From Candidatus Omnitrophota bacterium (GTDB lineage: Bacteria > Omnitrophota > Gorgyraeia > Gygaellales > Profunditerraquicolaceae): a stretch of DNA of 64,000 nt. The notes below the pieces were generated by a model, which was not told the DNA's origin, did not search any database, and worked only from the letters and a program-made list of their open reading frames with translations. The stretch spans positions 18,637 through 82,636 of the forward strand of contig JAQUOD010000005.1 in assembly GCA_028717245.1 (NCBI GenBank), read 5' to 3'. This document shows, piece by piece, positions 3,475 through 53,960 of the stretch. The position numbers were made by a program, and so were the translations under genes. Positions within the stretch are counted from its first letter, which is position 1; every line of letters starts with the position of its first letter.

Positions 3475-3486
3475 AATCGCCCTCTT

Positions 3487-3553
3487 CGTTATTGCGTTAC
3501 TTGCGTTTTAGCGTTATTGCGTTCGAATGCTATAACGCAATAACCCTATAACA
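3487..3553. repeat. CGTTATTG x4-5 / ATAACNNN x4 hairpin element (trkA-trkA spacer)
   Basis: The units CGTTATTG, CGTTACTTG, CGTTTTAG, CGTTATTG and CGTTCG are followed by loop AATGCT and then ATAACGCA, ATAACCCT, ATAACACT and ATAACC. Confidence 0.8.
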
Positions 3554-4204
3554 CTATAACCCAAACCTTTCTCTTACTTTAGTTAGGCTGGCCACCTTCA
3601 CTGCCGCTGTTAATATGTCTCTTTCTCTTAATGTAGTTGAGGATTCCGGGATAATGACGCCGTGCAGCCGCCTGATGGCCACAACCAAAAATTCTCCGGG
3701 GATATTGATATCCTGTATGGTCTTGCCTATCAGGTTATCTTTGGCTTCTATCTCGATAACCCCCAGTTCTTTAGTCTCAATGAGGTAACTGGAAAAGCGG
3801 CTCTCGATGATTTTGTCCCTGAGCATCGCGGCAAACAAGATTGTTCCGCTGATAATCTCAAGGCCCAATGCGGCATAGATATGCGCGCGCTGGGGGTCAT
3901 ATACGCGGGCGATAACCTTGGGGACCTTGAAGATTTTTTTGGCTGCCTGCGCGGAGATTAAATTGGTATTGTCGCCGTTAGTTACCGCACAGAAGGCATC
4001 CGCCTTTTCAATGCCCGCTTGTTTTAGCAGGCTTAAAGAAAAACCATTGCCTACCAGAGTTACTCCGTTGAAAGTATCGCCAAGACGGTCAAAAGACGCC
4101 TGGCTCTTATCAATCACGACTACGTCGTGCCCTTCTGCTGATAAGAGTTTGGCTAATTCCGAACCTACTCTGCCGCAACCTACTATTATCACATACATAA
4201 TCAA
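3554..4204 (-). CDS. trkA: potassium transporter peripheral NAD-binding subunit TrkA (second paralog)
   Basis: It has the motif IIVGCGRVG, a TrkA_N plus TrkA_C architecture, and is 216 aa. Confidence 0.85.
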   Translation of the reverse strand: MIMYVIIVGCGRVGSELAKLLSAEGHDVVVIDKSQASFDRLGDTFNGVTLVGNGFSLSLLKQAGIEKADAFCAVTNGDNTNLISAQAAKKIFKVPKVIARVYDPQRAHIYAALGLEIISGTILFAAMLRDKIIESRFSSYLIETKELGVIEIEAKDNLIGKTIQDINIPGEFLVVAIRRLHGVIIPESSTTLRERDILTAAVKVASLTKVRERFGL

Positions 4205-4211
4205 CCTCGCC

Positions 4212-4296
4212 GTTCATTGAGTTCGTTGAGTCTATAGAGTTTATTGAGTTAACCTTACGAACTCAATAACTCAAAAAACTCAACAGGCTCAAATAA
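4212..4296. repeat. NNNTTGAGT x4 / ACTCAANNN x4 hairpin element (trkA-rplT spacer)
   Basis: TCATTGAGT, TCGTTGAGT, CTATAGAGT and TTATTGAGT are followed by a loop and then GAACTCAAT, AACTCAAAA, AACTCAACA and GGCTCAAAT. Confidence 0.85.
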
Positions 4297-4304
4297 CTAT
4301 TATA

Positions 4305-4995: not shown

Positions 4996-5511
4996 TTATT
5001 TCGGGCCGGCAATGAAATATATAACCCTGCCTTCTAACATAGGCTCTTTTTCTACCTGCCCGTCGTTCTGTAATTCCAGAATAAATTTATCGATAACCTT
5101 TCGGCCTATATCCAGATGCTCCATCTGCCTGCCGCGGAAGAACATGCTCACCTTGACCTTGTCTTTTTTCTTCAGGAAACTGATGGCATGTTTTACTTTT
5201 ATCTGGCAATCGTGCTCGTCGATATTAGGCTTAAGGCGGATCTCTTTTATGCGGGACTGGTGCTGGTGCTTCTTGGCCTCGCGTTCTTTCTTCTCCTGGT
5301 CGTATTTAAATTTAGTAAAATCGATTACCCGGCATACCGGAGGGCTGGCCGCAGGCGCAACCTCAACTAAGTCTAACTCGTGTTGATTTGCTATCTCCAG
5401 GGCCTGCTGAATAGGGACTACTCCCAACTGGTTACCGTCTGGCCCCACCAGGCGCACTTCTGGTACGCGTATTCTTTCGTTGGTGCGGATAAACTTTTTT
5501 ATCGTAACCAC
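4996..5511 (-). CDS. infC: translation initiation factor IF-3
   Basis: It shows IF-3 N- and C-domain motifs (RVPEVRLVGPDG...ALEIA...LDLVEV; KEIRLKPNIDEHD). It has a GTG start as read by the ORF track, consistent with non-ATG IF3 starts. Confidence 0.9.
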   Translation of the reverse strand: MVTIKKFIRTNERIRVPEVRLVGPDGNQLGVVPIQQALEIANQHELDLVEVAPAASPPVCRVIDFTKFKYDQEKKEREAKKHQHQSRIKEIRLKPNIDEHDCQIKVKHAISFLKKKDKVKVSMFFRGRQMEHLDIGRKVIDKFILELQNDGQVEKEPMLEGRVIYFIAGPK

Positions 5512-5521
5512 CTCCTTTTGG

Positions 5522-5598
5522 AGTTTGTTGAGTTCTTTGAGTTTGTTGAGTTAGTTGAGTTAACTCTATGAACTCTACAAACTCTATAAACTCAATGA
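5522..5598. repeat. NNNTTGAGT x4 / AACTCTNNN x4 hairpin element (infC-thrS spacer; inverted arm reaches thrS stop)
   Basis: TTGTTGAGT, TCTTTGAGT, TTGTTGAGT and TAGTTGAGT are followed by AACTCTATG, AACTCTACA, AACTCTATA and AACTCAATG. Confidence 0.85.
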
Positions 5599-7316
5599 AC
5601 TTTATTTTCTATTTCCTGCCTTATCTGTTTTACAAATTCTTCTATAGGCTTTGCCCCTAAGTCACCCTTGCCTCTTTGGCGCACGGCAACGGTCCCGTTT
5701 ATCTCCTCGCGCTCGCCCACAATCAGGATATAAGGAACCTTTGCTAATTCTGCCTGGCGTATCTTTTTGTTCAGAGTCTCGTTACGCTCATCCACCTCAA
5801 ATCTTATATGAGATTTTTCTAATTCGGGTTTAATCTTGCCCCTGATATACCCCTCTAATGAATCTTTTACCGGGATAACCATGACTTGCGTGGGGGCTAG
5901 CCACAGAGGAAACGCACCCTTATAGTGTTCTACCAAAGCGCCGATAAAACGCTCAAGGCTGCCCAAGAGCACGCGGTGCAACATTATAGGCTGTTTTTCT
6001 TTTCCTTGAGAGTCCACATAGGTAAGATTAAATCTTTTGGGGAGCGCGAAATCGCATTGAATAGTAGCGCATTGCCATTGGCGCTTCAGGGCGTCCTTTA
6101 ATTTTATATCAATCTTCGGCCCATAAAATGCGCCCTCTCCCGCATTTACCGTATAGGTTAAGCCTTTTTCTTTTAATGCCGCCTCCAACGCCTCGGTGGC
6201 CAGCTGCCAGTCTTCTTCTGAGCCGATATATTTTTCCGGACGCGTGCTTAACTCAATCCCCACGTCACTAAAACCGAAGACCTTCATCGTATCAAAGACA
6301 AATTCTATAATCATCTGTATTTCCTGCACCAGTTGTTCGGGTAAACAAAATATGTGCGCATCGTCCTGGGTAAAGCCACGCACCCGAAGCAGGCCGTGGA
6401 GGACCCCTGTCTTTTCATGGCGATAAACCGTGCCCAGTTCAAATAACCGTATAGGCAGGTCTTTATAACTGCGTATCCTGGATTTATAAATCAGGATATG
6501 GCCAGGGCAGTTCATCGGCTTTAAAACAAACTCCCGGTTTTCGATTTTTAAGATGTACATGTTCTCTTTGTAATATTCATAGTGGCCGGAGGTCTTCCAG
6601 AGCTCTGCCTGCATAATATGCGGGGTAATCACTATCTGATAGCCGCGGCGCAGATGCTCCTGCTTTTCGTAATCCTCGATTATCGTCCGCAGTAGCGCGC
6701 CCTTGGGATGATAAAAGACCAGCCCTGCCCCTGCCTCTTCATGATAGATATCAAATAATTCCATTGCCGGCCCCAGCTTCCTGTGGTCGCGCAACTTTGC
6801 CTCTTCTAAATTTTTTAAATATTCTTCTAATTTTTGCTTGGTTTCAAAACAAGTCCCGTAAATCCTCTGCAGCATCGGATTTGTCTCAATCCCGTGCCAA
6901 TAAGATCCGGCAACAGAGAGCAATTTAAAGGCCTGGATTTTGCCGGTGGATGCCAGATGCGGCCCGCGGCATAAGTCTATAAAATCTTTGCCTGTCTTGT
7001 AGATGGAGGCTGTCTCCCCGGGGAGCGCCTGGATAAGTTCTATTTTATAATCCTCTTTTAATTTTTTGAATAAGGCGAGCGCCTCTTTTTTGGAGAGCTC
7101 TTCTCTGATAAAAGGCTCATCCTTAGCGATTATTGCGCGCATCTTTTTTTCTATCTTTTCTAAATCCTCGTCGGTAAATGGCTCTTTCTTATCAAAGTCA
7201 TAGTAAAAGCCGTCTTCGATAGAAGGGCCGATGCCCAGCTTCGCCTGCGGCCAGAGCTCTTTTACCGCCTGAGCCATAATGTGGGAACACGAATGTCTTA
7301 AGGTATCTAAATTCAT
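5592..7316 (-). CDS. thrS: threonine--tRNA ligase
   Basis: This 574-aa protein has a class II aaRS core with ThrRS editing/second-additional-domain HxxxH (HSCSHIMAQA) and a C-terminal anticodon-binding domain. It lies in the conserved thrS-infC-rpmI-rplT neighbourhood. Confidence 0.93.
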   Translation of the reverse strand: MNLDTLRHSCSHIMAQAVKELWPQAKLGIGPSIEDGFYYDFDKKEPFTDEDLEKIEKKMRAIIAKDEPFIREELSKKEALALFKKLKEDYKIELIQALPGETASIYKTGKDFIDLCRGPHLASTGKIQAFKLLSVAGSYWHGIETNPMLQRIYGTCFETKQKLEEYLKNLEEAKLRDHRKLGPAMELFDIYHEEAGAGLVFYHPKGALLRTIIEDYEKQEHLRRGYQIVITPHIMQAELWKTSGHYEYYKENMYILKIENREFVLKPMNCPGHILIYKSRIRSYKDLPIRLFELGTVYRHEKTGVLHGLLRVRGFTQDDAHIFCLPEQLVQEIQMIIEFVFDTMKVFGFSDVGIELSTRPEKYIGSEEDWQLATEALEAALKEKGLTYTVNAGEGAFYGPKIDIKLKDALKRQWQCATIQCDFALPKRFNLTYVDSQGKEKQPIMLHRVLLGSLERFIGALVEHYKGAFPLWLAPTQVMVIPVKDSLEGYIRGKIKPELEKSHIRFEVDERNETLNKKIRQAELAKVPYILIVGEREEINGTVAVRQRGKGDLGAKPIEEFVKQIRQEIENKVH

Positions 7317-7317
7317 C

Positions 7318-7394
7318 GTCGTTAATCGTTATTCGTTAATCGTTATTAGATGGCTAACTTATCCATTAACGATTAACTATTAACCAATAACTAA
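7318..7394. repeat. CGTTAAT/CGTTATT x4 + ATTAACG-type x4 hairpin element abutting thrS start codon
   Basis: CGTTAAT, CGTTATT, CGTTAAT and CGTTATT are followed by loop AGATGGCTAACTTATCC and then ATTAACG, ATTAACT, ATTAACC and AATAACT. The element begins 1 nt from the thrS ATG on the minus strand. Confidence 0.85.
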
Positions 7395-7396
7395 AA

Positions 7397-7471
7397 TGGG
7401 CGCTACAGGACTTGAACCTGTGGCCTTTTCCATGTCAAGGAAACGCTCTAAACCAACTGAGCTAAGCGCCC
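7397..7471 (-). tRNA. tRNA-Val (anticodon GAC)
   Basis: The revcomp folds as a cloverleaf with a 7-bp acceptor stem GGGCGCT/AGCGCCC. The anticodon stem is TTTCC/GGAAA with loop TTGACAT, the T-arm is ACAGG-TTCAAGT-CCTGT, and the total is 75 nt. Confidence 0.85.
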
Positions 7472-7573: not shown

Positions 7574-8242
7574 TCATGATGGTTCGCAATAAACAGTTGT
7601 GCTTTTATCCCAACCTGTATACGAACTCAAGCACTGTTGAGCCAAATTTATCTTCCTCTCAAGCCCAAAGCAATGTTTATAATAACACTGTTTAGCAATT
7701 TCTCTTGCCGCCATTTTACCGTATTTTAATACCCAAAAATTATTTCTGCTGTTATGAATCTTACCGAAAACTTCTAATAACCCCGCTATTGTGTCGCTTA
7801 ACCAGTGAACAAATTCTTCGGAGCCAGAATATATCCTCAGGCTCCATTGTTCTCCTTTATTGGTCGGGTGTACCCAGCGACGGATACATCCGTCACCGTC
7901 AATTACTCCTCTTAAAAAATCAACGAAATATTGATTTGGTATTTCTAGAGCACCCAATGTCAGAGATTTATTTTGTGTTAGCCCAATCGATAAAAGGAAA
8001 TTGTATAAATTTTTGTTTCCTACCTGAATATGAAAACATCTCTGATTTTTACTATTATATTTGATACCAATTTTGTTCTTGAGCCCGGTTGCGTCTTTAA
8101 TCGCCTGAAGGAATTGAGAATCTTTAGAGGTTATGTCTATATGTCTCCCATCCGGACATAAACACCCATCAGTTGCAATCAAACCTACCAAATACCAAAG
8201 ATTTGAACCTTCAATTTTCAATTCTTTTCGCTTATTCGGCAT
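7574..8242 (-). CDS. free-standing LAGLIDADG homing endonuclease (two-motif, monomeric type)
   Basis: This 222-aa ORF has two LAGLIDADG motifs (LWYLVGLIATDGCL and FLRGVIDGDGCI). It fills the whole spacer between tRNA-Cys and tRNA-Leu with gaps of 6-7 nt. Confidence 0.8.
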   Translation of the reverse strand: MPNKRKELKIEGSNLWYLVGLIATDGCLCPDGRHIDITSKDSQFLQAIKDATGLKNKIGIKYNSKNQRCFHIQVGNKNLYNFLLSIGLTQNKSLTLGALEIPNQYFVDFLRGVIDGDGCIRRWVHPTNKGEQWSLRIYSGSEEFVHWLSDTIAGLLEVFGKIHNSRNNFWVLKYGKMAAREIAKQCYYKHCFGLERKINLAQQCLSSYTGWDKSTTVYCEPS

Positions 8243-14603: not shown

Positions 14604-14819
14604 TTATAGTAAGGGATCCCAACCACTTTTACGCGAGAAAGGATGGCACGCTAATAGCCTCTGCGCACCCTTTAAAGTCCCGCGCAAGAAACCGTATTTG
14701 CTGATCGCCTGTTTAGTGTATTCTGAACAGCTGGGCAGAAAGCGGCAAGAGGAAGGCAGCATCCTGCGTATGCAGCTTTGATATATATTAAGGAGACCGA
14801 GCGCTGCTCTTTTTAACAT
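14604..14819 (-). CDS. yidD: membrane protein insertion efficiency factor YidD
   Basis: It has the PSCSEY motif and is 71 aa. Confidence 0.85.
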   Translation of the reverse strand: MLKRAALGLLNIYQSCIRRMLPSSCRFLPSCSEYTKQAISKYGFLRGTLKGAQRLLACHPFSRKSGWDPLL

Positions 14820-14956
14820 TAAAGAGAAATACTGTGTCTGCCTTTTTGGCGCCGACGGGCTAAAACTGCTCTGCCTGCCTTTGTGGCCATGCGGCGCCGG
14901 AACCCGTGCCGTCGTTGACCGACGATATTTGTGGGCGTCTTTAAATTTTTTTTCAT
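14819..14956 (-). CDS. rpmH: 50S ribosomal protein L34
   Basis: The minus-strand ATG at 14954-14956 gives [45 protein letters not shown], 45 aa. It was missed by the ORF track because it is under 60 aa. Its stop shares 1 nt with the yidD start. Confidence 0.9.
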
Positions 14957-15117
14957 GCGGGGGCTCGTCCTTGTATTGTATGGCGTTTAGAATAGTGCAG
15001 TAATTATAACATAAGCCAACGCCAAGTCAATACCGCTTTTTAAAATATTATCCCGCGCCCCCTAACCACTTGAATCAAGATAACCACGGGTGAAAAGGAT
15101 ATTTAAAGTATTGATCC

Positions 15118-15205
15118 ATGGGCGAACGGTTTTAGCGGGTCCTGCCGCGGGGGCGCCTCTCGTCAAATTTTCCTCGAGGCATCCCCCGCGTCACCCGCTA
15201 AAAGC
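15118..15205 (+). repeat. copy 1 of a repeated palindromic element (44-nt identical core CCTCTCGTCAAATTTTCCTCGAGGCATCCCCCGCGTCACCCGC with flanking compensatory stem)
   Basis: An identical 44-mer is also present at about 33685-33728. Outer stem: copy 1 is TTTTAGCGGGT...ACCCGCTAAAA and copy 2 is TTTTGCGGGT...ACCCGCAAAA. Confidence 0.7.
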
Positions 15206-15329
15206 ATTATCTATAAACAGTATGCTAATTTTAAACTTAACTTGATTTTTGTTGACTGACACAAAAATTATTGTATAATAATGCACACACCTTATTTTCT
15301 CTTGCGCTATTATTGGGCTTTGTTATAAT

Positions 15330-15385
15330 ATTTCCACAGGTTTATCCAAGTTGTGCATAAGCTGTGAATAATGTAGATAAGTGGG
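15330..15385. promoter_or_regulatory. cluster of DnaA-box-like 9-mers immediately upstream of dnaA
   Basis: TTATCCAAG, TGTGCATAA, TGTGAATAA and TGTAGATAA (7-8 of 9 matches to TTATCCACA/TGTGGATAA) occur within 60 bp, and there is a TATAAT-like box at about 15323. Confidence 0.55.
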
Positions 15386-15396
15386 GCAATTAAGCC

Positions 15397-16731
15397 ATGC
15401 TGGACGTCCAAGGGCTTTGGGAGAAGGCGAAGAGCCATTTACAAGATAAGCTGGGTAAGACTACTTTTGACACGTGGATACTGCCTCTGAAGCCAAAATA
15501 CACAAGCGAAACTGAGCTGACCCTGGCAGCCCCGGATACTTTTTTCCGGGACTGGGTAAATACGCACTATGGCCAACCCATCCAGGAAGCAATTAATGGT
15601 TTCGCCAAGCAGGTAATCCGTCTGCATTTAGAAGCCGCCTCTGCTGCCAAGGATAGTTTATCCCGACTACCCCCACTGGCCACAACTAAAATCCAGGATA
15701 TAAAGGATATCTCCGGCCTGAACTCCCGTTATACATTTGAAAATTTTGTCATCGGCCCGTCTAACCGCCATGCCCATGCTTATTCTCTGGCAGTGGCAGA
15801 ATCCCCGGCCAAAACTTATAACCCTTTGTTTATATACGGCGGGGTGGGCCTGGGCAAGACGCACCTGATCCAGGCGGTCTGCCATCATGCTAAAAACAAG
15901 GCCGGGGGGAATCTTAAGATCTGCTATATGACTTCAGAGCGGTTCACCAATGAGCTCATCGACGCCATACAGCACCATTCTACACCTGCCTTCAGGCAGA
16001 AATACAGAAACGTGGATATATTGGTCATAGATGATATACATTTTATTGCCGGCAAGGAATCTACCCAGGAAGAATTCTTCCATACCTTTAATACATTATA
16101 CGACGCCCACAAGCAGATTATTATTTCCTCCGATAGGCCGCCCAAAGAGATATCTAACTTGCAAGACAGGCTCGTCTCCAGGTTTGGCTGGGGGTTGACT
16201 ACGGATATACAGCCCCCGGATTTAGAAACGCGGGTGGCGATATTAAAGAAAAAAATCGAGAGAGAGCCGGTGGCAGTGCCGGATGAAGTCATATTTTTTA
16301 TCGCCCAGCTGATTAAAACTAATATCCGGGAATTGGAGGGCGCTCTCATACGCACCATAGCTTATTCTCTGTTGGAAGAGAAACCAATTACCTTAGAATT
16401 AACCAAAGAGGTTTTAAAAGACCTCTTAAAAGAACCACAAAAATTAATTACCGTGGATTTTATACAGCGTTGCGTGGCGGAAGAATACGGGGTGTCGCTT
16501 GCGGACTTAAAGACCAGGCGTAGGAGCAAAAATATTGTCCTGCCCCGGCAAGTAGCTATGTATCTGAGCAGGGAACTTACAGACCTGTCTTTGCCGGAAA
16601 TAGGTAATTTTTTCGGGGGCAAAGATCATACTACCGTATTACATTCCTATAATAAAATCAAAAATGATTTAAATAGTAACGAGATATTAAAAAACAAGGT
16701 AGAAAGGGTTATACAAGTTATTCAACAGTAA
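15397..16731 (+). CDS. dnaA: chromosomal replication initiator DnaA
   Basis: It has the AAA+ Walker A GGVGLGKTHL, sensor motifs, and a C-terminal DnaA-box binding HTH (VAMYLSRELT). It is 444 aa. Confidence 0.97.
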   Translation: MLDVQGLWEKAKSHLQDKLGKTTFDTWILPLKPKYTSETELTLAAPDTFFRDWVNTHYGQPIQEAINGFAKQVIRLHLEAASAAKDSLSRLPPLATTKIQDIKDISGLNSRYTFENFVIGPSNRHAHAYSLAVAESPAKTYNPLFIYGGVGLGKTHLIQAVCHHAKNKAGGNLKICYMTSERFTNELIDAIQHHSTPAFRQKYRNVDILVIDDIHFIAGKESTQEEFFHTFNTLYDAHKQIIISSDRPPKEISNLQDRLVSRFGWGLTTDIQPPDLETRVAILKKKIEREPVAVPDEVIFFIAQLIKTNIRELEGALIRTIAYSLLEEKPITLELTKEVLKDLLKEPQKLITVDFIQRCVAEEYGVSLADLKTRRRSKNIVLPRQVAMYLSRELTDLSLPEIGNFFGGKDHTTVLHSYNKIKNDLNSNEILKNKVERVIQVIQQ

Positions 16732-17965: not shown

Positions 17966-22013
<4,048 letters not shown>

Positions 22014-22014
22014 A

Positions 22015-22160
22015 AATTTGTGTAATGTGTAAAGTGTAATGTGTAAAGCGGGTGTAATGCAAAAGATAGGTGTAATGGGGAAAACACTTGCATTACACGG
22101 TAAAATATTAAACCTACATTACACGTTACACATTTAACGTTACACAGAAACGCAGCCCCT
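22015..22160. repeat. intergenic direct/inverted array of GTGTAAT(G) / CATTACAC units (gyrB-gyrA spacer)
   Basis: There are about 6 GTGTAA(A/T)G units followed by 4 CATTACAC/GTTACAC units, a long imperfect hairpin. Confidence 0.8.
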
Positions 22161-22175
22161 TAACTTTTATTAAAA

Positions 22176-25100
22176 ATGTATACGCGTAACGAAAAAATTA
22201 TCCCGGTTTATATTGAGGATGAGGTCAAGGACTCTTATTTAAATTATGCCATGAGCGTCATCGTCGGCCGCGCCCTGCCCGATATCCGCGACGGCTTAAA
22301 GCCGGTGCACAGGCGCATTCTTTATGCCATGCAGGAGCTTAATCTTGACCACTCTAAGCCTTATAAGAAATGCGCGCGTATCGTCGGCGAGGTCCTGGGT
22401 AAATACCATCCCCACGGCGATGTCGCGGTTTATGATGCCTTAGTCAGGATGGCCCAGGGTTTTTCCCTGCGCTATCCTTTGGTAGACGGGCAGGGAAATT
22501 TTGGATCGGTCGACGGGGATGCAGCTGCCGCGATGAGATATTGCGTCACCGGAGATACTCTGATTGTTACAGATAAAGGACTGCAAAGAATAGACAAACT
22601 TCCTCATCATTCCAAAACAGATTTTCGGGTACTTTCATTAAATAATAAGATAAATCATGTTTCAAAATGGTTTGATTCCGGAGAGCATTTAACTAAAAAA
22701 ATTACTACCTTTAGAGGTTTTAGCTTATGCGGGAGCCGGAATCATCCTATTTTAACGTGGCAACGTAATGGAACAAAGCCAAAATTAGTTTGGACACTAT
22801 TGAATAATGTAGAAAATGGCGATTTTGTCGTAGTCAGTAGGAGCGGTTCGTTATTCCCTTCAAGGGAACCTTTATTAAAAAAATTTTATCCAGAACTTCG
22901 AAACAGAAGGCAGGAGCATAAGCTTCCTCGCGCTATGAATGTAGATCTGGCTTTTATTTTGGGAGCGCTAATTGCAGAAGGTTCTATAAGCAGGGAACAA
23001 ATTGGATTCTGTAATGGGGATAAAGAGTTTCTACGGGAATTTAAATCGTGTTTCCAGCGAGTATTCCCCGATTGCAGGCTGCATGAATTTGTAAGAAAAC
23101 CGTTGAGTTATGGGAAAAAGAAATGTACTTATTTAGAAATTCATTCAATGCATGTTATAGATTTTTTGAAAAATCTAGGGTTACGTCAGTTGCGAGCTTA
23201 TGATAAAACCATTCCAGATATAATTTTTTCTTCCTCGAAAAAATCGGTTGCCGCGTTTATAAAAGGTTATGCAGAGGGAGATGGTAGTATTTGTGTTGGC
23301 AAAAGAAACCCTGATATCAGCTTGATATCAACCAGCGGAAAATTGATTCAAGGTTTACAGGTTTTCCTCCTAATGTTTGGCATTGATTCTTCGCATAGAT
23401 TTCATAAGCAAAAAAACTATTTTAGGTTGTTTATTAGAGGCCGCAACAATCTCGATTTATTTAAAAATCAAATAAATTTTGCTACTAGGAAAAGTCGTGA
23501 AAGGTTGATAGATATTTGTAATCGCAATAAAACTGATTGGGTTATGTCCAAGACAGATTGTATTCCCTACATCGCCGACTATCTTCGTAAAAAAAGCACA
23601 CGGTGCAAGAGAAAATATTGGGGGAACATAGAATGGCTAAAAAAACACAACATCGATAGGTACCCAAAAATAGAAAAATACTGGCCCAGGCTAAGAAGGG
23701 TTCTTGATAAAGACGATGTTAGTTTGTTTGAGGGTTTGATAAAAAATAGATATATCTTTGATAAAATTGTTTCGGTAGAAGATGCTGGTAAGAAAAGAGT
23801 CTATTCAATTAAAGTGGATAGCCCGTGCCACTCATTTGTATCCAATGGATTCATAAGTCATAATACTGAAGCGCGCCTGGCTGCTATTTCCGATGAGATA
23901 CTCGCGGATATTGATAAGGACACCGTAAATTTCGGGCCCAATTTTGACTCCTCCCTCAAAGAGCCGCTTTTATTGCCCGCGGCCTTGCCTAATCTGTTAG
24001 TGAACGGCTCAAGCGGTATAGCTGTGGGTATGGCTACCAATATCCCCCCGCACAATTTGAATGAAGTGGCCGATGCCATTATCTATCTATTAGATCATCC
24101 GGAAACCGAAATCAAGGACCTGATGCGTTATATCAAGGGTCCGGATTTTCCGACGGGCGGCGTAATCTGCGGCAGGAACGGTATCAAAGATGCCTATACC
24201 ACAGGAAAAGGTAAGCTCACCGTGCGCGCGCGGGCCACTATCGAGCGCCAGAAGAACGGCAAGGACCTGATTATAATTACTGAGATTCCCTACCAGGTGC
24301 AGAAATCCGCGTTAATTGAGGCCGCCGCCGCTTTGGTGGACGATAAAAAAATAGAGGGTATTTCTGACATCCGCGATGAATCCGATAAAGACGGGATGCG
24401 TATCGCGGTAGAACTCAAGCGCGACGTGGAAGCGCAGATTGTCTTGAATCAGCTCTTTAAACATACGCAACTGGAGACTACCTTCGGGATTATTATGCTG
24501 GCGCTGGTAGACAACAGGCCGCGGGTTTTGACGTTACGTCAGATGTTGGAATATTATATCGAGCACCGCAAGATTATCATCCGGCGCAGGACGCAATTTG
24601 AATTAGATAAGGCCTTAAAGAGGGCGCATATCTTAGAGGGCTTAAAGATTGCCCTGAAATACATCGACCGGATTATCAAGGTCATCAAGACCTCCAAGAA
24701 TACGGAGAATGCCAAAGAGCGCCTGATGAAGGAATTCGGCCTTTCTGATGTGCAGGCGCAGGCGATATTAGAAATGCAGTTGCAGCGCCTCACTGCTTTA
24801 GAGCGCGATAAGATTGACGCCGAATATTTAGAGCTCCTGAAAAAAATTGAACTGTGTAAAGCCATACTCGCCTCGGAGAAGAAAATTGAAGGCATCATCA
24901 AAGAGGATCTGGAGGCCTTAAAGAAAAAATACGGCGATGAACGCAGGACCGACCTGGTCGCCGAAGCAGAAGAATTAGAGGTGGAAGACCTTATCGCCGA
25001 AGAAGACGTAGTGGTGACAATAAGCCACGGCGGTTATATCAAGCGCTTGCCGGTGAGCGCCTACCGTAAACAGAAACGCGGGGGCACAGGGGCAACGGGC

Positions 25101-25931
25101 GCAGAAGTCAAAGAAGAGGATTTTATAGAACATCTTTTTGTGGCCTCGACCAAAGATTATTTATTGACCTTCGCTGATAAGGGCCAGGTGCATTGGCTCA
25201 AGGTTTATGAAATCCCGCAGGCCAGCCGCACTTCCAAAGGCAAGGCCATCATTAATCTTTTACAGATGGAAGCAGGCTCTAAAGTCAGCTCGACCATACC
25301 GGTGAAGGAATTCTCCGCTGACCAATACCTGGTAATGGTCACCAAGTGCGGCCAGATTAAAAAGACAAGGCTTGACGCCTACGGTAATCCGCGCAAGGGC
25401 GGGATTATCGGCATTAGCCTGGATAAGGGCGATGAGCTGATCGGCGTAGAGTTAACCGACGGAAAACAGGAGCTGCTTATCGGTACCCGCCAGGGTAAGG
25501 CCATAAGATTTTCTGAGAGCAAGGTGCGGGATATGGGCAGGCAGGCAGGAGGCGTACGCGCCATCTCTTTAGCCAAGAAAGACGAAGTGATTGCCATGGT
25601 TTTAGCCCAGAAGGATACCACAGTATTAACCGTTACGGAATTAGGCTTTGCCAAACGTACACCCATTCAAGAATACCGCCTGACCAGCCGCGGCGGCAAA
25701 GGCATTATTAATATAAAAGTCACCAGTAAGAACGGCGAGGCAGTAAGTTTAAAGACTGTCAGCGACAACGACGAGCTGATGGTTATTACACAGAACGGCA
25801 TGTTCTTACGTTGTGCGGTCAAAGATATCCGCACTACCGGCAGGTCTGCCCAGGGAGTGCGGCTGATTAAGCTACAGGAGAAAGACCGCGTTTCTTGCGT
25901 GGCGCCGGTGATTGCAGAAGAGGAAGAATAA
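22176..25931 (+). CDS. gyrA: DNA gyrase subunit A, intein-containing precursor (about 810-aa extein plus 441-aa intein)
   Basis: The GyrA N-terminus is present. AAMRY (catalytic Tyr at extein residue 122) is interrupted by CVTGDTLIV...NGFISHN and resumes at [11 protein letters not shown]. Confidence 0.95.
22542..23864 (+). mobile_element. GyrA intein with LAGLIDADG homing endonuclease domain
   Basis: It is inserted directly after the catalytic Tyr. Splice-junction blocks resemble the mycobacterial GyrA intein (…ITNGFVSHN). LAGLIDADG motifs are [14 protein letters not shown] and [14 protein letters not shown]. It is 1323 nt and in frame. Confidence 0.85.
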
Positions 25932-26044
25932 CCCCTAAAGTCCCCATCGTCTTCCCGCCATTCTATGCAATAGCAGGCGGGATCCCGCCTGAATATATAG
26001 GTTGTTTGGCGGGAAGCCTGGTCTATGACAAATTGTTGCAGGAC

Positions 26045-26308
26045 ATGTACTATGTTTATGTTCTTGAGAACGCGAAGGGTAAGTACTATATAGGCAGTTG
26101 CGAAAATCTATCGGCACGGCTAAAACAGCATAATCAAAACTGTGTTAGTTCGACAAAAAATAAAGGGCCATTTATAATAGTTTACAAAGAAGATTGTGCC
26201 ACAAAAACAGAAGCACGTAAACGAGAGAGCCAGTTAAAGGGCTACAAAGGCAACAGTAAGTTTGATAGATTAATAACGAGCTTGTCCCCATCGTCTAGCC
26301 TGGTCTAG
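26045..26308 (+). CDS. GIY-YIG nuclease family protein (small YhbQ-like)
   Basis: The sequence MYYVYVLENAKGKYYIGSCENLSARLKQHNQ...KTEARKRESQLKGY carries the GIY-YIG motifs. The likely start is ATG 26045, and the longer track ORF from 25895 overlaps gyrA. The last 8 codons read into tRNA-Glu. Confidence 0.7.
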   Translation: MYYVYVLENAKGKYYIGSCENLSARLKQHNQNCVSSTKNKGPFIIVYKEDCATKTEARKRESQLKGYKGNSKFDRLITSLSPSSSLV

Positions 26309-26358
26309 GACAAGAGCTTTTCAAGCTCTCGACACCGGTTCAAATCCGGTTGGGGACG
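26284..26358 (+). tRNA. tRNA-Glu (anticodon TTC)
   Basis: The sequence is GTCCCCATCGTCTAG...AGAGC-TTTTCAA-GCTCT...ACCGGTTCAAATCCGGT-TGGGGAC-G. It closely resembles canonical bacterial tRNA-Glu. Confidence 0.85.
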
Positions 26359-26508
26359 TTAATATTGACCGGTTCCCCGCCTACGCACCTTGAATTTACT
26401 TCGTAAAGCGCTATGGTGTACTTCGCGGGTCCGCCGTAGCTCACCAAAGCTAAGAAGGAAATCTACCAAAGAACGAAGGCGGAAAATCCGGTTGGGGACG
26501 TTAATATT
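26343..26508 (+). repeat. 25-bp direct repeat AAATCCGGTTGGGGACGTTAATATT (tRNA-Glu 3' end plus 8 nt) flanking a 117-bp insert
   Basis: Copy A is at 26343-26367 and copy B at 26484-26508, immediately 5' of the glmS ATG. Confidence 0.85.
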
Positions 26509-28350
26509 ATGTGCGGAATAATCGGTTATATCGGCCAAAGGTCAGCCCAGGAGATTTTACTCAACGGCCTGAAGCGCCTGGAGTATCGCGGTTATGATTC
26601 CAGTGGCATGGCTATCATCCTGTCTGGCAAAAATGCCCTCTCCGTCAGAAAATCTGCGGGCAAGATCAGCGCGCTGGAAAATCTCCTGCATAAAAAGCCC
26701 CTGGCCGGGAATCTAGGTATTGCCCATACCAGATGGGCGACGCATGGAGCGCCCAACCAAATCAACGCCCACCCCCATAGCGATTGTCACGACGAAATCG
26801 CCGTTGTCCATAACGGCATCATTGAAAATTATGCTAAATTAAAAAATGAGCTTATTAAGGAAGGCCATAAATTCTTAAGCCAGACCGATACCGAGGTAAT
26901 CGTGCATCTTGTAGAAAAGTTTTATTGTAACAGCACTCCCTTAGAAGAGGCGTTTAGGAAGGCGCTTGGTAAATTAGAGGGTTCTTTTGCCATTGCGGTT
27001 GTTTCACAAAAAGAACCCGATAAGCTAATCGGCGCGCGCCTAGGCAGTCCTTTAATTGTCGGCGTGGGCAAGAAGGAGAATTTTCTTGCCTCGGATGCGC
27101 CGGCGATATTAGATGCTACGAACGAAGTGATTTTTTTAAATGATAATGAAGTGGCGGTTCTGGAGAAGGATAGTGTTCGGGTAACGGACTTTAGCGGCAA
27201 AAACATCCCTAAGAATACGGTGCGCCTGAACTGGGATATTGACCAGGCCCAGAAACAAGGGTACAGGCATTTTATGCTCAAGGAGATTAATGAGCAACCC
27301 AAGATACTGGAGAATATCCTGGGTATGACCATCAGGAAAGAAACCGGCAAAATATTCTTTGAAGATTTGGGGATTCCCGAAGAGCAGCTGAAGAAAAAAC
27401 AAAATATTATTATTGTGGCCTGCGGCACTGCTTATCATGCGGGCTTATGCGGTAAGTATATTATAGAAGAACTCTGTAGGGTGCCGGTAAGCGTAGATGT
27501 GTCCAGTGAGTTTCGCTACCGTAACCCCCTGATTAATGCGGATACACTGGTAGTAGCTATCAGCCAGTCAGGCGAGACCGCAGATACCCTGGCAGCAGTG
27601 CGGGAAGCCAGGAAAAAAGGCGCAGCGGTATTAGCTATTTGTAATGTTTTAGGTGCCAGCCTGGTGCGCGAATCTGACGCTACAATCTATACCCATGCCG
27701 GCCCTGAGATAGGCGTGGCCTCCACCAAGGCCTATACGGCGCAGCTAGCTATTCTGTATCTGTTCGCCTTGTATCTGGCAGGCCTGAAGCGGGTTTTAGC
27801 CGAGGATAAAATAGAGCGGATTGTTAGCGTTCTCAAGAAAACTCCTCATCTGCAAAAGCAGGTCCTGGAGAATCAGGAAGTTATCAAAGAGGTTGCCCGC
27901 CGGCATTCCCATTTCGGTTCATTTTTATTTTTGGGCAGGAACATCAATTATCCTTCGGCGCTGGAAGGCGCGCTGAAATTAAAAGAGATTTCTTATATTC
28001 CGGCTGAGGGCTATGCTGCTGGCGAAATGAAGCATGGGCCTATTGCCTTAATTGATGAATACCGCGCCGTGGTCTGTATTGCGCTTGAATCGGGCGTCTA
28101 CGAAAAGATGGCCTCTAATATCCAGGAGATACGCAGCCGCCAGGGCAAGATTATCGCTATTGCCAGCCAAGGGGATGAAAACATACAAGAACTCACCCGC
28201 GAAGTTATCTATGTGCCTAAAATAGAGGAGTTATTTTCTCCGTTAATAGTAGCGCTGCCATTACAGTTATTAGCCTACCATATTGCCGTCAAGCGCGATT
28301 GCGATGTGGACCAGCCGCGTAATTTAGCCAAGTCCGTAACCGTCGAATAG
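26509..28350 (+). CDS. glmS: glutamine--fructose-6-phosphate aminotransferase
   Basis: It has the N-terminal MCGIIGYIG (Ntn amidotransferase), two SIS domains, and is 613 aa. Confidence 0.95.
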   Translation: MCGIIGYIGQRSAQEILLNGLKRLEYRGYDSSGMAIILSGKNALSVRKSAGKISALENLLHKKPLAGNLGIAHTRWATHGAPNQINAHPHSDCHDEIAVVHNGIIENYAKLKNELIKEGHKFLSQTDTEVIVHLVEKFYCNSTPLEEAFRKALGKLEGSFAIAVVSQKEPDKLIGARLGSPLIVGVGKKENFLASDAPAILDATNEVIFLNDNEVAVLEKDSVRVTDFSGKNIPKNTVRLNWDIDQAQKQGYRHFMLKEINEQPKILENILGMTIRKETGKIFFEDLGIPEEQLKKKQNIIIVACGTAYHAGLCGKYIIEELCRVPVSVDVSSEFRYRNPLINADTLVVAISQSGETADTLAAVREARKKGAAVLAICNVLGASLVRESDATIYTHAGPEIGVASTKAYTAQLAILYLFALYLAGLKRVLAEDKIERIVSVLKKTPHLQKQVLENQEVIKEVARRHSHFGSFLFLGRNINYPSALEGALKLKEISYIPAEGYAAGEMKHGPIALIDEYRAVVCIALESGVYEKMASNIQEIRSRQGKIIAIASQGDENIQELTREVIYVPKIEELFSPLIVALPLQLLAYHIAVKRDCDVDQPRNLAKSVTVE

Positions 28351-28352
28351 CA

Positions 28353-28410
28353 CCAGGTGCAAATCCAATCGGGCACCAGGTGCGAAACTGAGATTGTACC
28401 TGTCCCTTAA
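28353..28410. repeat. GCACCAGGTGC palindromic-unit repeat (2 units) downstream of glmS
   Basis: CACCAGGTGCAAATCCAATCGGGCACCAGGTGCGAA is nearly identical to the start of the longer array at 39432. Confidence 0.75.
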
Positions 28411-29891: not shown

Positions 29892-29987
29892 TAGTTCATT
29901 GAGTCTATTGAGTTCATAGAGTCCATTGAGTTGTATATATCATAACTCAAAAAACTCAAAAAACTCAAAAAACTCAAAAAACTCAAT
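29892..29987. repeat. 9-mer NNNTTGAGT x4 / ACTCAAAAA x4 hairpin element (pyrR-pyrB spacer, ends at pyrB ATG)
   Basis: The units CATTGAGT, CTATTGAGT, TCATAGAGT and CCATTGAGT are followed by loop GTATATATCATA and then ACTCAAAAA x4 plus ACTCAAT. Confidence 0.85.
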
Positions 29988-30935
29988 ATGGTCTGGACGA
30001 GAAAAGATTTACTGGGTTTAGAAGATTTAAGCCGGGAAGAGCTGGAGTTTATCTTAGCTACTGCGGATTCCTTTAAAGAGGTTTCTACCCGCGAGATTAA
30101 AAAAGTCCCGGCCTTACGCGGTAAGACCGTGGTGAATTTGTTCTATGAACCCTCTACAAGGACAAGGGTATCTTTTGAGCTAGCAGCAAAACGCTTATCC
30201 GCAGACGTGATTAATATTGCCTCAGAGACCTCCAGCGTCAAAAAAGGGGAAACCTTAATTGATACCGGCAGGAACATAGAGGCCCTGAAAGTAGATATTA
30301 TCGTAGTGCGGCATAATTATTCCGGGGCAGCGGCAATACTGGCGCGCCATGTCAAGGCCAGCGTGATTAATGCCGGAGACGGCTGGCACGAACATCCTAC
30401 GCAGGCGCTCTTGGATATTTTTACTTTAAAGGAGAAACTAGGCAGGATTGAAGGGTTAAGGGTGAGTATTGTCGGAGATATCGCGCACTCGCGCGTGGCC
30501 CGTTCCAATATCTGGGGGTTGACTAAATTAGGCGCTCAAGTGACGGTCTGCGCGCCCAAAATGTTGGTGCCGCCGGCCATTGAAGAAATGGGCGTTAGAG
30601 TGACTAATGATATAGATGAGGCGCTAAAAGATGCTGATGCAGTGGATGTCTTAAGGATGCAGTTTGAGCGCGATGAGGGTAATGCCTTCCCAGAGCAATT
30701 AGAATATTTTAAAAACTTCGGGATTACCGAAGAAAGGTTAGAGAAGGCTAAGAAGAATATTATTGTCATGCATCCGGGGCCCTTAAACCGCGGGATTGAA
30801 ATTTCCAGCGGCGTAGCCGACGGCGCAAACTCTGTGATACTGGAACAGGTGACCAACGGCATTGCCGTGAGGATGGCCGCGCTCTTTTTAGTAGCGCAGG
30901 CGAATGAGAATATCAGCCATGAAGATACTCATTAA
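29988..30935 (+). CDS. pyrB: aspartate carbamoyltransferase catalytic subunit
   Basis: It has the STRTR and HPTQALLD motifs and is 315 aa. Confidence 0.95.
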   Translation: MVWTRKDLLGLEDLSREELEFILATADSFKEVSTREIKKVPALRGKTVVNLFYEPSTRTRVSFELAAKRLSADVINIASETSSVKKGETLIDTGRNIEALKVDIIVVRHNYSGAAAILARHVKASVINAGDGWHEHPTQALLDIFTLKEKLGRIEGLRVSIVGDIAHSRVARSNIWGLTKLGAQVTVCAPKMLVPPAIEEMGVRVTNDIDEALKDADAVDVLRMQFERDEGNAFPEQLEYFKNFGITEERLEKAKKNIIVMHPGPLNRGIEISSGVADGANSVILEQVTNGIAVRMAALFLVAQANENISHEDTH

Positions 30936-33472: not shown

Positions 33473-33544
33473 GCGCCTGTAGCGCAATGGATAGCGCACT
33501 AGCCTCCGGAGCTAGTGGTGACAGTTCGACTCTGTCCAGGCGCA
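33473..33544 (+). tRNA. tRNA-Arg (anticodon CCG)
   Basis: The sequence is GCGCCTG-TA-GCGC-AATGGATA-GCGC-A-CTAGC-CTCCGGA-GCTAG-...GACAG-TTCGACT-CTGTC-CAGGCGC-A. Confidence 0.8.
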
Positions 33545-33564
33545 AGGTAAGCACTGTGCAGGTT

Positions 33565-33586
33565 CCCTGCCTGCCGGCAGGCAGGG
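33565..33586. repeat. perfect palindrome CCCTGCCTGCCGGCAGGCAGGG (related copy inside pyrK at 41462-41483)
   Basis: It has 11-bp arms, there is no U-tract after it, and a near-copy CCCTGCCTGTCCGGCAGGCAGG is embedded in the pyrK coding sequence. Confidence 0.8.
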
Positions 33587-33639
33587 ACTCCCGCCAGGCG
33601 CACTTTGATAACTTAATGATTTTGCTGCGGGATTTGCTC

Positions 33640-33728
33640 GCGTGCTGAAATTGAGTTTTGCGGGTCCTCACCGCGAGGTGAGCCTCTCGTCAAATTTTCC
33701 TCGAGGCATCCCCCGCGTCACCCGCAAA
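33640..33728 (+). repeat. copy 2 of the repeated 44-nt-core palindromic element
   Basis: The core is identical to copy 1 (15118-15205) and the flanking stem TTTTGCGGGT...ACCCGCAAAA is compensatory to that of copy 1. Confidence 0.7.
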
Positions 33729-33790
33729 AATTAGCTTATTAGTAACCGGATGAAAATTCGCCAGATTCATTTTAAAGGGAGGTAGCCAAA

Positions 33791-34207
33791 ATGATGGATA
33801 AGAAAATAAAAATATGTATGTTTATTATAGGTTTATTAGATTTGATAATAGGGGCGCGTTTAGTATTATATTGCGGCAACCTGCTTACTCATTTTATATT
33901 ACATCCAAAAGAAATGGAAAGTTTTGTTATTGGGCCATTAATTGCCTCACCGTTTTTTATTTCTATAGGCTTTTTTATATTCTGGGCTGGTATTCAATCT
34001 TTAAGACTAAAAACAAGTGCAAGAAAATATAATTTAATTATTTATTCTTGGGGATTATATTTATCAGTTCCAATTGGATTACTCTTTGCTATTCTTGCTC
34101 GCGCAGAACCTTTATTTAAGAGGATATTATGTATCGTTCCAGCGTTAGTTTGTTTACTTATTATTCTTTTTCTTACCCGCCCTAGGATAAAAGAACAGTT
34201 TAAATAA
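33791..34207 (+). CDS. small integral membrane protein (4 predicted TM), hypothetical
   Basis: This 138-aa, highly hydrophobic ORF lies in a locally AT-rich segment (33790-34220). Confidence 0.45.
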   Translation: MMDKKIKICMFIIGLLDLIIGARLVLYCGNLLTHFILHPKEMESFVIGPLIASPFFISIGFFIFWAGIQSLRLKTSARKYNLIIYSWGLYLSVPIGLLFAILARAEPLFKRILCIVPALVCLLIILFLTRPRIKEQFK

Positions 34208-39067: not shown

Positions 39068-39431
39068 CCGTATCGAGTTAGTGGATATTACGGAGAGAAT
39101 CCAGGCAATAGTATCTAAAAGCAAAGTTAAAGATGGCGTGTGTTTTCTCTTCTGTCCGCATACTACTGCCGGGCTGACTATCAATGAAAACGCAGATCCG
39201 TCGGTCAGGCAGGATATTATCCGTGCCCTGAATAAGCTCATCCCGGAAAATGCCGGATACACGCATAGTGAAGGCAATTCCGATAGCCATATCAAGGCAG
39301 CGCTCTTTGGTTCTTCCCTAACTATATTTATTGAGAGTGGCCGCTTGGCATTCGGCACTTGGCAGGGGATATATTTTTGCGAAGGCGACGGACCGCGCTC
39401 CAGAGAGGTCTGGGTTAAAATTTTAAGTTAG
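39039..39431 (+). CDS. YjbQ/UPF0047 family protein (secondary thiamine-phosphate synthase-like)
   Basis: It has the YjbQ pattern [21 protein letters not shown]...HIKAAL and is 130 aa. It overlaps the carB 3' end by 29 nt. Confidence 0.75.
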
Positions 39432-39550
39432 CACCTGGTGTGAATCCAATCGGGCACCAGGTGCGAATTCAAGATTGTACCAGGTACAAGATTAGATTTG
39501 GAAACGGTACAAGATTAGTTTCGCACCTGGTACGAGATTAGCTCGGCACC
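39432..39550. repeat. array of 5-6 palindromic GCACCNGGTGC-type units (upstream of mutM)
   Basis: The units CACCTGGTG, GCACCAGGTGC, GTACCAGGTAC, GCACCTGGTAC and GCACCTAGTGC are separated by spacers of about 10-18 nt that contain AAGATTAG. Confidence 0.8.
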
Positions 39551-39552
39551 TA

Positions 39553-43182: not shown

Positions 43183-43272
43183 AAGCGGCGTCAAAGTATC
43201 AAGGTGTCAATGTGTCAAAGTGTAGATTTTTTGATACTTTGATACACTGACACTTTGACACAACATTAGGAG
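43183..43272. repeat. GTCAAAGT/GTATCAAG x4 + inverted x4 hairpin element (GT2-tauE spacer)
   Basis: CGTCAAAGTATCAAGGTGTCAATGTGTCAAAGTG is followed by loop TAGATTTT and then TTGATACTTTGATACACTGACACTTTGACAC. Confidence 0.85.
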
Positions 43273-53817: not shown

Positions 53818-53960
53818 TTGCATTTGCTATCGCGTATGGTATAATTGTTTTAAAAGCAATAGTAGATAAGTAAGTGGTCTGGGAATATACAAAAGTATTC
53901 CCGGAGGATTTTCGATGGTCGGGCCGCCATCTTGCATGATAATGCGGGATGGCGTTTTTT
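53818..53960 (+). promoter_or_regulatory. promoter (TTGCAT-16-TGgTATAAT) plus leader with mutually exclusive antiterminator/terminator hairpins
   Basis: The leader contains GGGAATA...TATTCCC, then GATGG-TCGGGCC-GCCATC overlapping CGCCATC-...-GATGGCG-TTTTTT. This lies 34 nt upstream of ATG 53994. Confidence 0.55.

Follow-up and report, generated by a model that had tools for sequence, protein, structure and literature searches.

What is a 44-nt sequence that recurs without a single change at two places in the same bacterial contig, once between rpmH and dnaA and once shortly after a tRNA gene? The question is raised by a 64,000-nucleotide stretch of a Candidatus Omnitrophota genome (contig JAQUOD010000005.1; the whole stretch is called the window below), for which an initial annotation, made from the letters alone, had offered two answers: a structured RNA or a hairpin-forming mobile element. 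The answer preferred here, with a confidence slightly above even, is that the sequence belongs to a small non-autonomous, hairpin-forming dispersed repeat of a Candidatus Omnitrophota clade, of the general kind exemplified by repetitive extragenic palindromes (REPs) and the hairpins built of paired REPs (REPINs), or by MITEs (miniature inverted-repeat transposable elements). The observations that carry this answer are that the element is a discrete unit, that it is dispersed to unrelated intergenic sites in several genomes, that it is present at some sites and absent from their counterparts, that one copy is nested in an insertion sequence (IS), and that its base pairing is maintained.

The repeat and its limits are readily established. 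The repeated string, given as 43 letters in the initial annotation, has exactly two matches in the window, at 15156-15198 and 33683-33725, both on the + strand, and 0 of 100 shuffles of the window yield any match; a preceding G common to both loci brings the identical run to 44 nt (15155-15198 = 33682-33725), the length that had been claimed. This run is the core of an element with sharp ends, 74 nt long in the window and up to ~115 nt long with inserts:

15130-15203, + strand: copy 1, the whole 74-nt hairpin element (sequence, fold, covariance-model match)
33656-33729, + strand: copy 2, the whole 74-nt hairpin element (sequence, fold, covariance-model match)
15155-15198, + strand: 44-nt core of copy 1, comprising the 5' strand of helix P3, the loop and the 3' strands of P3, P2 and P1, plus junctions
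33682-33725, + strand: 44-nt core of copy 2, identical to 15155-15198

When the 220 nt around each copy are aligned, similarity ends at the base of the hairpin; homology is thus confined to the element, and the copies do not lie within a larger duplicated block, a circumstance against which the initial annotation had cautioned. Copy 2 departs from copy 1 in two respects. One A:T pair of the outer stem is missing (TTTTA-GCGGGT...ACCCGC-TAAAA in copy 1, TTTT-GCGGGT...ACCCGC-AAAA in copy 2, both sides changing together), and a 16-nt stretch on the 5' side (CCTCAC CGCGAGGT GA) has diverged, the 3' half being identical. The flanks therefore differ and still pair, as had been said, by way of one A:T pair in copy 1 that copy 2 does not have. 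Short-word BLAST, a bipartite pattern of the element's ends and a covariance model run with its filters off agree that the window holds these two copies only.

Each copy folds as one long hairpin, copy 1 at -44.1 kcal/mol (z = -6.0 relative to shuffled controls) and copy 2 at -32.1 kcal/mol (z = -4.4). Copy 1 reads TTTTA GCGGGT CCTGC CGCGGGGG C GCCTC TCGTCAAATTTTCCTC GAGGC AT CCCCCGCG TC ACCCGC TAAAA and forms, from the base upward, helices P0 (TTTTA/TAAAA), P1 (GCGGGT/ACCCGC), P2 (CGCGGGGG/CCCCCGCG) and P3 (GCCTC/GAGGC), closed by a 16-nt loop; between P1 and P2 lies an asymmetric internal loop, with CCTGC on the 5' side opposite TC on the 3' side. In copy 2, P0 is TTTT/AAAA and P1 is again GCGGGT/ACCCGC. 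The parts that matter for what follows are these:

15135-15145, + strand: 5' strand of P1 (GCGGGT) and 5' side of the internal loop (CCTGC); with 15191-15198, the best-conserved module
15146-15153, + strand: 5' strand of P2, CGCGGGGG, pairing with CCCCCGCG at 15183-15190 (fold and six-copy comparison)
15160-15175, + strand: apical loop, TCGTCAAATTTTCCTC; replaced by TCGCCAAATTTGGCTC in both copies of metagenome contig L029 (see below), adding a GCCA/TGGC helix
15191-15198, + strand: 3' side of the internal loop (TC) and 3' strand of P1 (ACCCGC)
33666-33681, + strand: variable 5' segment of copy 2, CCTCACCGCGAGGTGA; its sole difference from copy 1 besides the P0 A:T pair

The general anatomy, to which the comparison of copies returns, is a variable outer stem (P0), a conserved P1, a conserved asymmetric internal loop, and an upper stem (P2 and P3) that can be changed or swapped while it remains paired. 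This anatomy revises the local 5' hairpins that had been proposed for each copy. In copy 1, CGCGGGGG and CCCCCGCG form the long-range middle helix, which joins the 5' arm to the 3' arm; for copy 2, a local hairpin CTCACC/GGTGAG is possible, but it is less stable than the extended hairpin (-26.7 and -30.6, respectively). The element has no conserved protein-coding potential, in line with the initial annotation, and concatenated peptides from all of its open frames match no protein. A 51-aa open reading frame (ORF) at 15090-15242 has a sole match among 1.84 billion representative proteins; this protein, P0241, was set aside as a chance match, having no DNA similarity to the element and being a satellite repeat beside telomere-type GGTTTAG arrays, probably eukaryotic.

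Relatives of the element exist outside the window, and they are few. A 20-mer from the 3' arm has 13 matches in JGI metagenomes, three of them genuine homologues (contigs L028, L029 and L031). The three contigs are Omnitrophota-like, have the GC content of the window (44-49%), and place the element in unrelated contexts; a regular-expression scan located a second copy in L029, at 3499-3576, so that this contig has two copies within 13 kb. The same 20-mer has 17 matches in 185,579 species-representative genomes, all of them attributable to chance (genomes of 56-76% GC, dissimilar flanks), and none in viral contigs. The 21-mer spanning loop and P3, CTCGTCAAATTTTCCTCGAGG, has no match in genome, metagenome and viral collections; BLAST of plasmid and phage collections finds no match to the element; and gapped end patterns in viral contigs gave 5 poorly folding, apparently chance matches in one scan and 0 in another. 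An Rfam search, which the initial annotation had recommended, connects neither copy with a known RNA: no Rfam 15 family matches at gathering or permissive thresholds, the only matches around the copies being to miRNA-precursor hairpins, below threshold. Within the window, the families that do reach threshold are tRNAs and nhaA-I only.

Comparison of six copies (two from the window, two from L029, distinguished as L029a and L029b, and one each from L028 and L031) shows how pairing has been kept. MAFFT had misaligned the 5' arms, and the copies were therefore registered by hand, with N as gap filler and a 48-nt insertion in L031 removed; such an alignment leans slightly towards structure, and with only six related sequences the pair statistics are descriptive. 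Standard pairs account for 86% of cells, a share that drops to 39-50% once partners are displaced by 1-3 columns; at nine pairs both partners have changed; the covariation score of the alignment is attained in 0 of 500 shuffles; and RNAalifold, suggested as a check in the initial annotation, independently recovers the same three helices from the six copies. The covariation that had been claimed is accordingly real across six copies; between the two window copies alone it comes down to one A:T pair. The usual U-A pair of P3 is C-G in L028 and L031, the usual G-C pair of P2 is A-U in L029b, and the usual loop GTCAAATTTTCC is GCCAAATTTGGC in both L029 copies, with four pairs added. P0 differs in every subfamily and is complementary each time:

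Copy 1 outer stem: TTTTA / TAAAA
Copy 2 outer stem: TTTT / AAAA
L029b outer stem: TAGCCAT(G)TA / TAATGGCTA
L028 outer stem: TA(G)GGCCA / TGGCCTA
L029a outer stem: CA / TG
L031 outer stem: TA / TA

Because both window copies share their outer stem, this stem must belong to the element and not to the target DNA. Conservation is not limited to paired positions: CCTGC opposite TC, and a C opposite AT, are conserved unpaired nucleotides. The place that tolerates change is the 5' site between P1 and P2, which is diverged in copy 2 and accommodates, in L031, the 48-nt insertion with two local hairpins of its own.

Mobility is suggested by sites with and without the element. The copy at 5107-5179 of L029 lies within an IS256-family IS, between the left inverted repeat and the start of the transposase gene. 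This IS has its inverted repeats at ~5064-5107 and 6461-6503 and is bracketed by TTTTTCCCT, a direct duplication of 9 bp; its transposase matches PF00872 at 1e-90. Relatives of the IS (L047-L052 and L056-L060, with transposases 78-86% identical) lack a hairpin in the interval from the left inverted repeat to the conserved AAAAAGGCGTATCC leader: their sequence runs ...TGTGTAAATTC, then 17 nt, then the conserved AAAAAGGCGTATCCTTCTCTTG leader. The hairpin is therefore an addition to the L029 copy of the IS and not a part of the IS family; the element as a conserved component of IS256 leaders was rejected for the same reason. The inverted repeats of the host IS (GGTAGTATACTCAATTGTGTGTAAATTC) are unrelated to the ends of the element, which is internal to the IS. 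At the same leader position, the IS encoding protein P0137 has a hairpin of 105 nt (the L036 variant) that shares P1 and the internal loop with the element (CAGCGGGT-CCTGCC ... GTC-ACCCGCT) but has an unrelated upper stem; this IS occurs in 10 different genomic contexts. Presence and absence are also seen at the site of copy 1 itself: the element is missing from the spacer between rpmH and dnaA in the two nearest relatives (with DnaA 81-82% identical), whose promoters and DnaA-box blocks align well with those of the window.

Some further observations concern this IS and its neighborhood in their own right. The IS256-family IS represented by L029 5064-6503 and L047-L060 occurs widely in Omnitrophota metagenomes, with >6,000 homologues at E <= 1e-40, and in its conserved leader GGCGTATCCTTCTCT appears to pair with AGAGAAAGGAGTACGCC, a pairing that would hide the ribosome-binding site. 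At the same leader position, L036 (~1725-1815), L067 (1-110) and L068 (50-165) contain another hairpin module, ~110 nt long and unrelated to the first (CTTCAAAGAGGCAATGGTTTT ... AAAACCAnTTTTTCTTTGAAG); the 5' outer strand of this second module is an inverted copy of the native leader sequence TCTTTGAA, which is also present in module-free IS copies. Downstream of their hairpins, L029 (~6761-6865) and L028 (574-673) share a non-coding stretch, 74% identical over 108 nt, that lies within an apparently structured region of ~250 nt without an Rfam match.

The surroundings of the two window copies are as the initial annotation had described them. Copy 1 sits in the 440-nt spacer between rpmH (14819-14956, - strand) and dnaA (15397-16731, + strand); copy 2 follows tRNA-Arg(CCG) (33473-33544) by 112 nt and precedes by 62 nt a 30% GC ORF (33791-34207) for a small membrane protein without a Pfam match. 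Genes to the left of ~15 kb are on the - strand and those to the right on the + strand, and cumulative GC skew is lowest at 14-16 kb; copy 1 therefore lies in the replication origin region. It is flanked by two strong sigma-70-like promoters directed away from it, that of rpmH (TTGACT-16-TATAAT, 15030 to 15003, - strand) and that of dnaA (TTGACT-16-TATAAT, 15252-15279, + strand). Three near-consensus DnaA boxes are clustered at 15352-15380. The DnaA of the window is identical (100%) to a Candidatus Omnitrophota protein, P0001; the next relatives have DnaA proteins 80-83% identical to it, and in those at 81-82% identity a 60-nt block around the DnaA boxes is conserved together with both promoters.

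Does the location then make the element a part of the origin? That it is one, or that the repetition is a chance duplication or an artefact of assembly, is scarcely credible. Copy 1 does lie where GC skew is lowest and genes switch strand, 150 nt from the conserved DnaA-box cluster, but it contains no DnaA box, relatives that have the conserved cluster have a spacer without the element, and the other copies are not at origins; an oriC element was rejected on the first two of these grounds. The chance expectation of such a repeat is zero, and independent assemblies from other samples contain the element. Location has likewise to be considered in connection with site-specific recombination, in the form either of an attC-like folded site or of the attL/attR scar of an island at tRNA-Arg. 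The window copies are direct repeats, copy 2 adjoins a tRNA gene and a low-GC ORF, and the architecture of the element, a conserved stem at the base followed by an unpaired spacer, a second stem and a tip that varies, resembles that of attC. Nevertheless, the 18.5 kb between the copies consist of core genes (dnaA, dnaN, gyrB, gyrA, glmS, pyrB, pyrC), there are no RYYYAAC/GTTRRRY boxes at the ends of the element and no integrase among the scanned ORFs, the element does not overlap the tRNA, and other copies have no tRNA nearby. The attL/attR version was rejected on account of the intervening core genes, and recombination sites as a whole are a very improbable, largely refuted, explanation.

The element is not strand-neutral. 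The covariance model scores copy 1 at 90.1 bits on the + strand and 45.3 on the - strand, copy 2 at 92.6 and 38.3. In the window, L029 and L031 the element is co-oriented with all neighboring genes, on the G-rich strand, these orientation data coming from only three independent contigs, in which the direction of genes is confounded with that of replication. In all seven copies the fold of the complementary strand is better by 5-8 kcal/mol, and the three broken pairs of the core are all A.C, which would be G.U on the complementary strand: a hint that the complementary strand may be the one that folds.

These asymmetries belong among the arguments for the main rival, which we consider unlikely and nonetheless take seriously: the element as a structured RNA family, cis-regulatory or a small RNA, whose basal helix and internal loop are needed, for instance to bind a protein or an RNase within 5' leaders or operon spacers, the copies having arisen by duplication with mobility only incidental. 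All helices covary and unpaired nucleotides are conserved; the L036 variant swaps the whole upper stem yet keeps P1 and the loop; L031 and copy 2 share a 5' insertion site of variable length; in the window, L029 and L031, strand asymmetry goes together with co-orientation with flanking genes; the IS-leader copy would fall within the 5' untranslated region of the transposase; and the better fold of the complementary strand, with A.C pairs turning into G.U, makes an antisense RNA conceivable. Against an RNA, the copies have no promoter or terminator in common and their homology ends at the hairpin base; the order of T-run, hairpin and A-run provides no intrinsic terminator on either strand; copy 1 is upstream of both the rpmH promoter and the dnaA promoter, which diverge from it; no gene family accompanies the element; and the orthologous sites of close relatives do without it, as does Rfam. 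Of the two answers first offered, then, the mobile element has gained support (unrelated contexts, insertion in an IS leader, empty orthologous spacers), and the structured RNA is the less likely of the two (no Rfam family; neither a promoter nor a terminator conserved; copy 1 flanked by divergent promoters). An association with downstream membrane ORFs was also considered and rejected; the ORFs after copy 2 and after the L031 copy are unrelated.

A third possibility is that the hairpin serves as a portable terminator or insulator, copied from the many hairpins that punctuate the intergenic regions of this genome. Long stable hairpins that lack T-runs do come straight after stop codons in many such regions of the window; copy 2 lies behind a tRNA gene, the L031 copy behind a helicase gene, and L029b between co-directional genes; and in an IS, a hairpin placed just within the left inverted repeat would keep transcription from reading through into the transposase gene. 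What makes this proposal decidedly improbable is, first, the sequence around the hairpin: on both strands a T-run precedes it and an A-run or mixed sequence follows, the reverse of the order in an intrinsic terminator, so that no U-tract comes after the hairpin in either direction. In addition, a classical terminator already precedes the element in L031, there is nothing to terminate between the divergent promoters around copy 1, and the other intergenic hairpins of the window are unrelated to it in sequence. A classical terminator was rejected on the order of the tracts and on the presence of a separate terminator in L031.

To return to the dispersed repeat: its movement and effects may be inferred as follows. 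An enzyme encoded elsewhere would copy the element to new sites, recognizing the folded single strand by way of P1 and the internal loop; the likeliest candidate would be a RAYT/IS200-type transposase or nuclease that acts on single strands in a structure-specific way. Carriage inside an IS would give the element a route between genomes. Once inserted, it would be co-transcribed with its neighbors as a very stable RNA hairpin lacking a U-tract, and this hairpin would act, if at all, as a stabilizer or insulator of transcripts and not as a classical terminator; its role would be passive or, as a stable transcript hairpin, mildly useful.

Several facts weigh against interpreting the element as a dispersed repeat. 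No transposase or HUH/Y1 gene lies near any copy among the scanned ORFs, 20 in the window and 10 in L029. There is no consistent target-site duplication, the flanks being TA/TA for copy 1, L029b and L031, CA/TG for L029a and L028, and TT/AA for copy 2; because the outer bases pair, a duplication is in any case indistinguishable from stem. The known copy number is low (2 in 64 kb, 2 in 13 kb, and no real match in 185,579 species-representative genomes), a high copy number being typical of REPs. The IS leader inside the left inverted repeat is hypervariable and hosts other hairpin modules too, and 'insertion' there could in part be recombinational exchange. Finally, the conserved internal loops, the covarying outer stem, the strand asymmetry and the co-orientation fit a functional RNA as well or better.

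A more radical proposal, speculative and probably wrong, would make the element a mobile module of a new, structure-addressed class. Only P1 and the internal loop (GCGGGT-CCTGC ... TC-ACCCGC) would then be recognized; the upper stem would be cargo, open to free exchange, and the outer stem would at each site be remade, or selected, so as to pair. An Omnitrophota enzyme would move the module in single-stranded form, as DNA or RNA, and the leader inside the left end of IS256-family elements would be colonized repeatedly. If this were true, the module could control transposase expression there, possibly by means of an antisense hairpin RNA, in view of the better fold of the complementary strand.

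Other features of the window deserve mention. Long hairpins (-19 to -46 kcal/mol) with arms made of tandem units of ~7-9 nt, the unit varying from site to site, are present in many intergenic regions (3475-3553, 4205-4304, 5512-5601, 7314-7398, 22024-22146, 28348-28400, 29906-29992, 39431-39556, 43190-43259); examples of the units are GAGTTnnTT/AACTCnnAA, GTTAATCGTTA, TGTGTAAAG, GTCAAAGT and GCACCTGGTG. They come directly after stop codons, without a T-run, and look like a genome-wide style of intergenic punctuation. Short intergenic tandem arrays of a CAACGAC/CAGCGAA heptamer occupy 1143-1181, 41637-41675 and 44567-44605. A perfect GC-rich hairpin, CCCTGCCTGCCGGCAGGCAGGG, at 33561-33590, 17 nt after tRNA-Arg and without a T-run, is separate from copy 2. 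The nhaA-I RNA (RF03057) is at 53875-53932, downstream of tRNA-Asp (47.3 bits, gathering score 37).

GyrB (18243-22013, 1256 aa) and GyrA (22176-25931, 1251 aa) are each ~430 aa longer than their counterparts in a relative, L001 (825 and 810 aa), and each contains an intein (PF14890), that of GyrA also with LAGLIDADG domains. A free-standing LAGLIDADG_3 homing-endonuclease-like ORF (7574-8242, - strand) lies between tRNA-Leu and tRNA-Cys, and a GIY-YIG homing-endonuclease-like ORF (25895-26308, + strand) overlaps the end of gyrA just before tRNA-Glu; L001 has a LAGLIDADG ORF near parA. An exact 25-nt direct repeat, AAATCCGGTTGGGGACGTTAATATT, at 26342-26366 and 26484-26508, consists of the 3' end of tRNA-Glu plus 7 nt and brackets a 117-nt insert directly upstream of glmS; the pair resembles an attL/attR scar left by an integrative element, perhaps a miniature one, that targets tRNA genes.

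What would the dispersed repeat contribute? REPs, REPINs and MITEs are well studied in Proteobacteria; the Omnitrophota are uncultivated and often ultra-small, and a literature search found no small palindromic repeats (REP, REPIN or MITE) described for them. The family offers a first handle on such repeats in this phylum, with a clean anatomy. A hairpin nested in an IS leader could explain how non-autonomous repeats move between genomes. On the practical side, exact repeats of 44-74 nt near the origin are potential break or mis-join points in the assembly of genomes from metagenomes, and serve also as markers for strain typing. The importance of the family is modest unless the enzyme that recognizes it, or an RNA function, proves new; no long-standing question is opened by it.

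Comparison with known systems places the element. An intrinsic terminator is likewise a stable GC-rich intergenic stem-loop, but here the T-run comes before and the A-run after on both strands, and a stem of ~24 pairs with a 16-nt loop is far larger than usual. Integron attC sites share the folded single strand, conserved basal stem, unpaired spacer, second stem with unpaired bases, variable tip, and conservation of structure above sequence; the element differs in having no R''/R' boxes, integrase or cassette array and in not being attached to promoterless ORFs. The subterminal hairpins of IS200/IS605 elements are recognized as single-stranded DNA. With these hairpins and with those of the miniature IS200/IS605 derivatives (PATEs) the element has in common an imperfect hairpin, independence of inverted ends and of target duplication, and an orientation bias relative to the replication strand (here in three contigs); unlike them, it has no TnpA/TnpB gene in view and no conserved cleavage tetranucleotide beside the foot of the hairpin.

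The likeness to bacterial MITEs (Correia elements of Neisseria, ERIC/IRU, RUP) goes further. The element is small and intergenic, polymorphic in presence and absence, and would be co-transcribed as hairpin RNA; terminal inverted repeats, (Y)AGCGGGT ... ACCCGCT(R), are found in all copies including the L036 variant; homologous sites exist with the element (the L029 IS leader) and without it (L047-L052, L056-L060 and the relatives' rpmH-dnaA spacers); and TA/TA flanks in 3 of 6 copies recall the TA duplication of Correia and IS630-type MITEs. It differs in being one whole palindrome instead of inverted repeats around an unrelated core, in the inconsistency of its duplication from copy to copy, in an outermost stem that varies by subfamily, where the ends of a transposon are normally the conserved part, and in that no parent IS was found to share its ends, in a comparison that covered the IS256 family: the sole IS found with it, that of L029, has unrelated inverted repeats.

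REPs and REPINs are mobilized by RAYT tyrosine (Y1) transposases and amount to tens to hundreds of copies per genome, the single-copy RAYT gene being flanked by repeats. Like them, the element is a short, GC-rich, intergenic, imperfect palindrome that is non-autonomous, and its two inverted arms make a ~70-110 nt hairpin whose structure is kept by compensatory change. Its paired outer stem resembles what has been reported of REP dimers, which fold into long hairpins and sit within flanking palindromes (PMC3733652). Unlike REPs defined by a tag, in which a palindrome of 20-40 nt has at one end an unpaired tetranucleotide, GTAG or CGTC (PMC3733652), it has no GTAG in any copy and CGTC internally only (CCCCCG-CGTC-ACCCGC, at the boundary of P2 and the loop), hence no terminal tag; its arms (~29 nt, with a 16-nt spacer) are not recognizable as self-folding REP units, and there is no RAYT gene among the scanned ORFs of the window and L029. 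The element would work like a REPIN or a MITE, and it is to the small dispersed palindromic repeats, under the name of no established family, that it is assigned.

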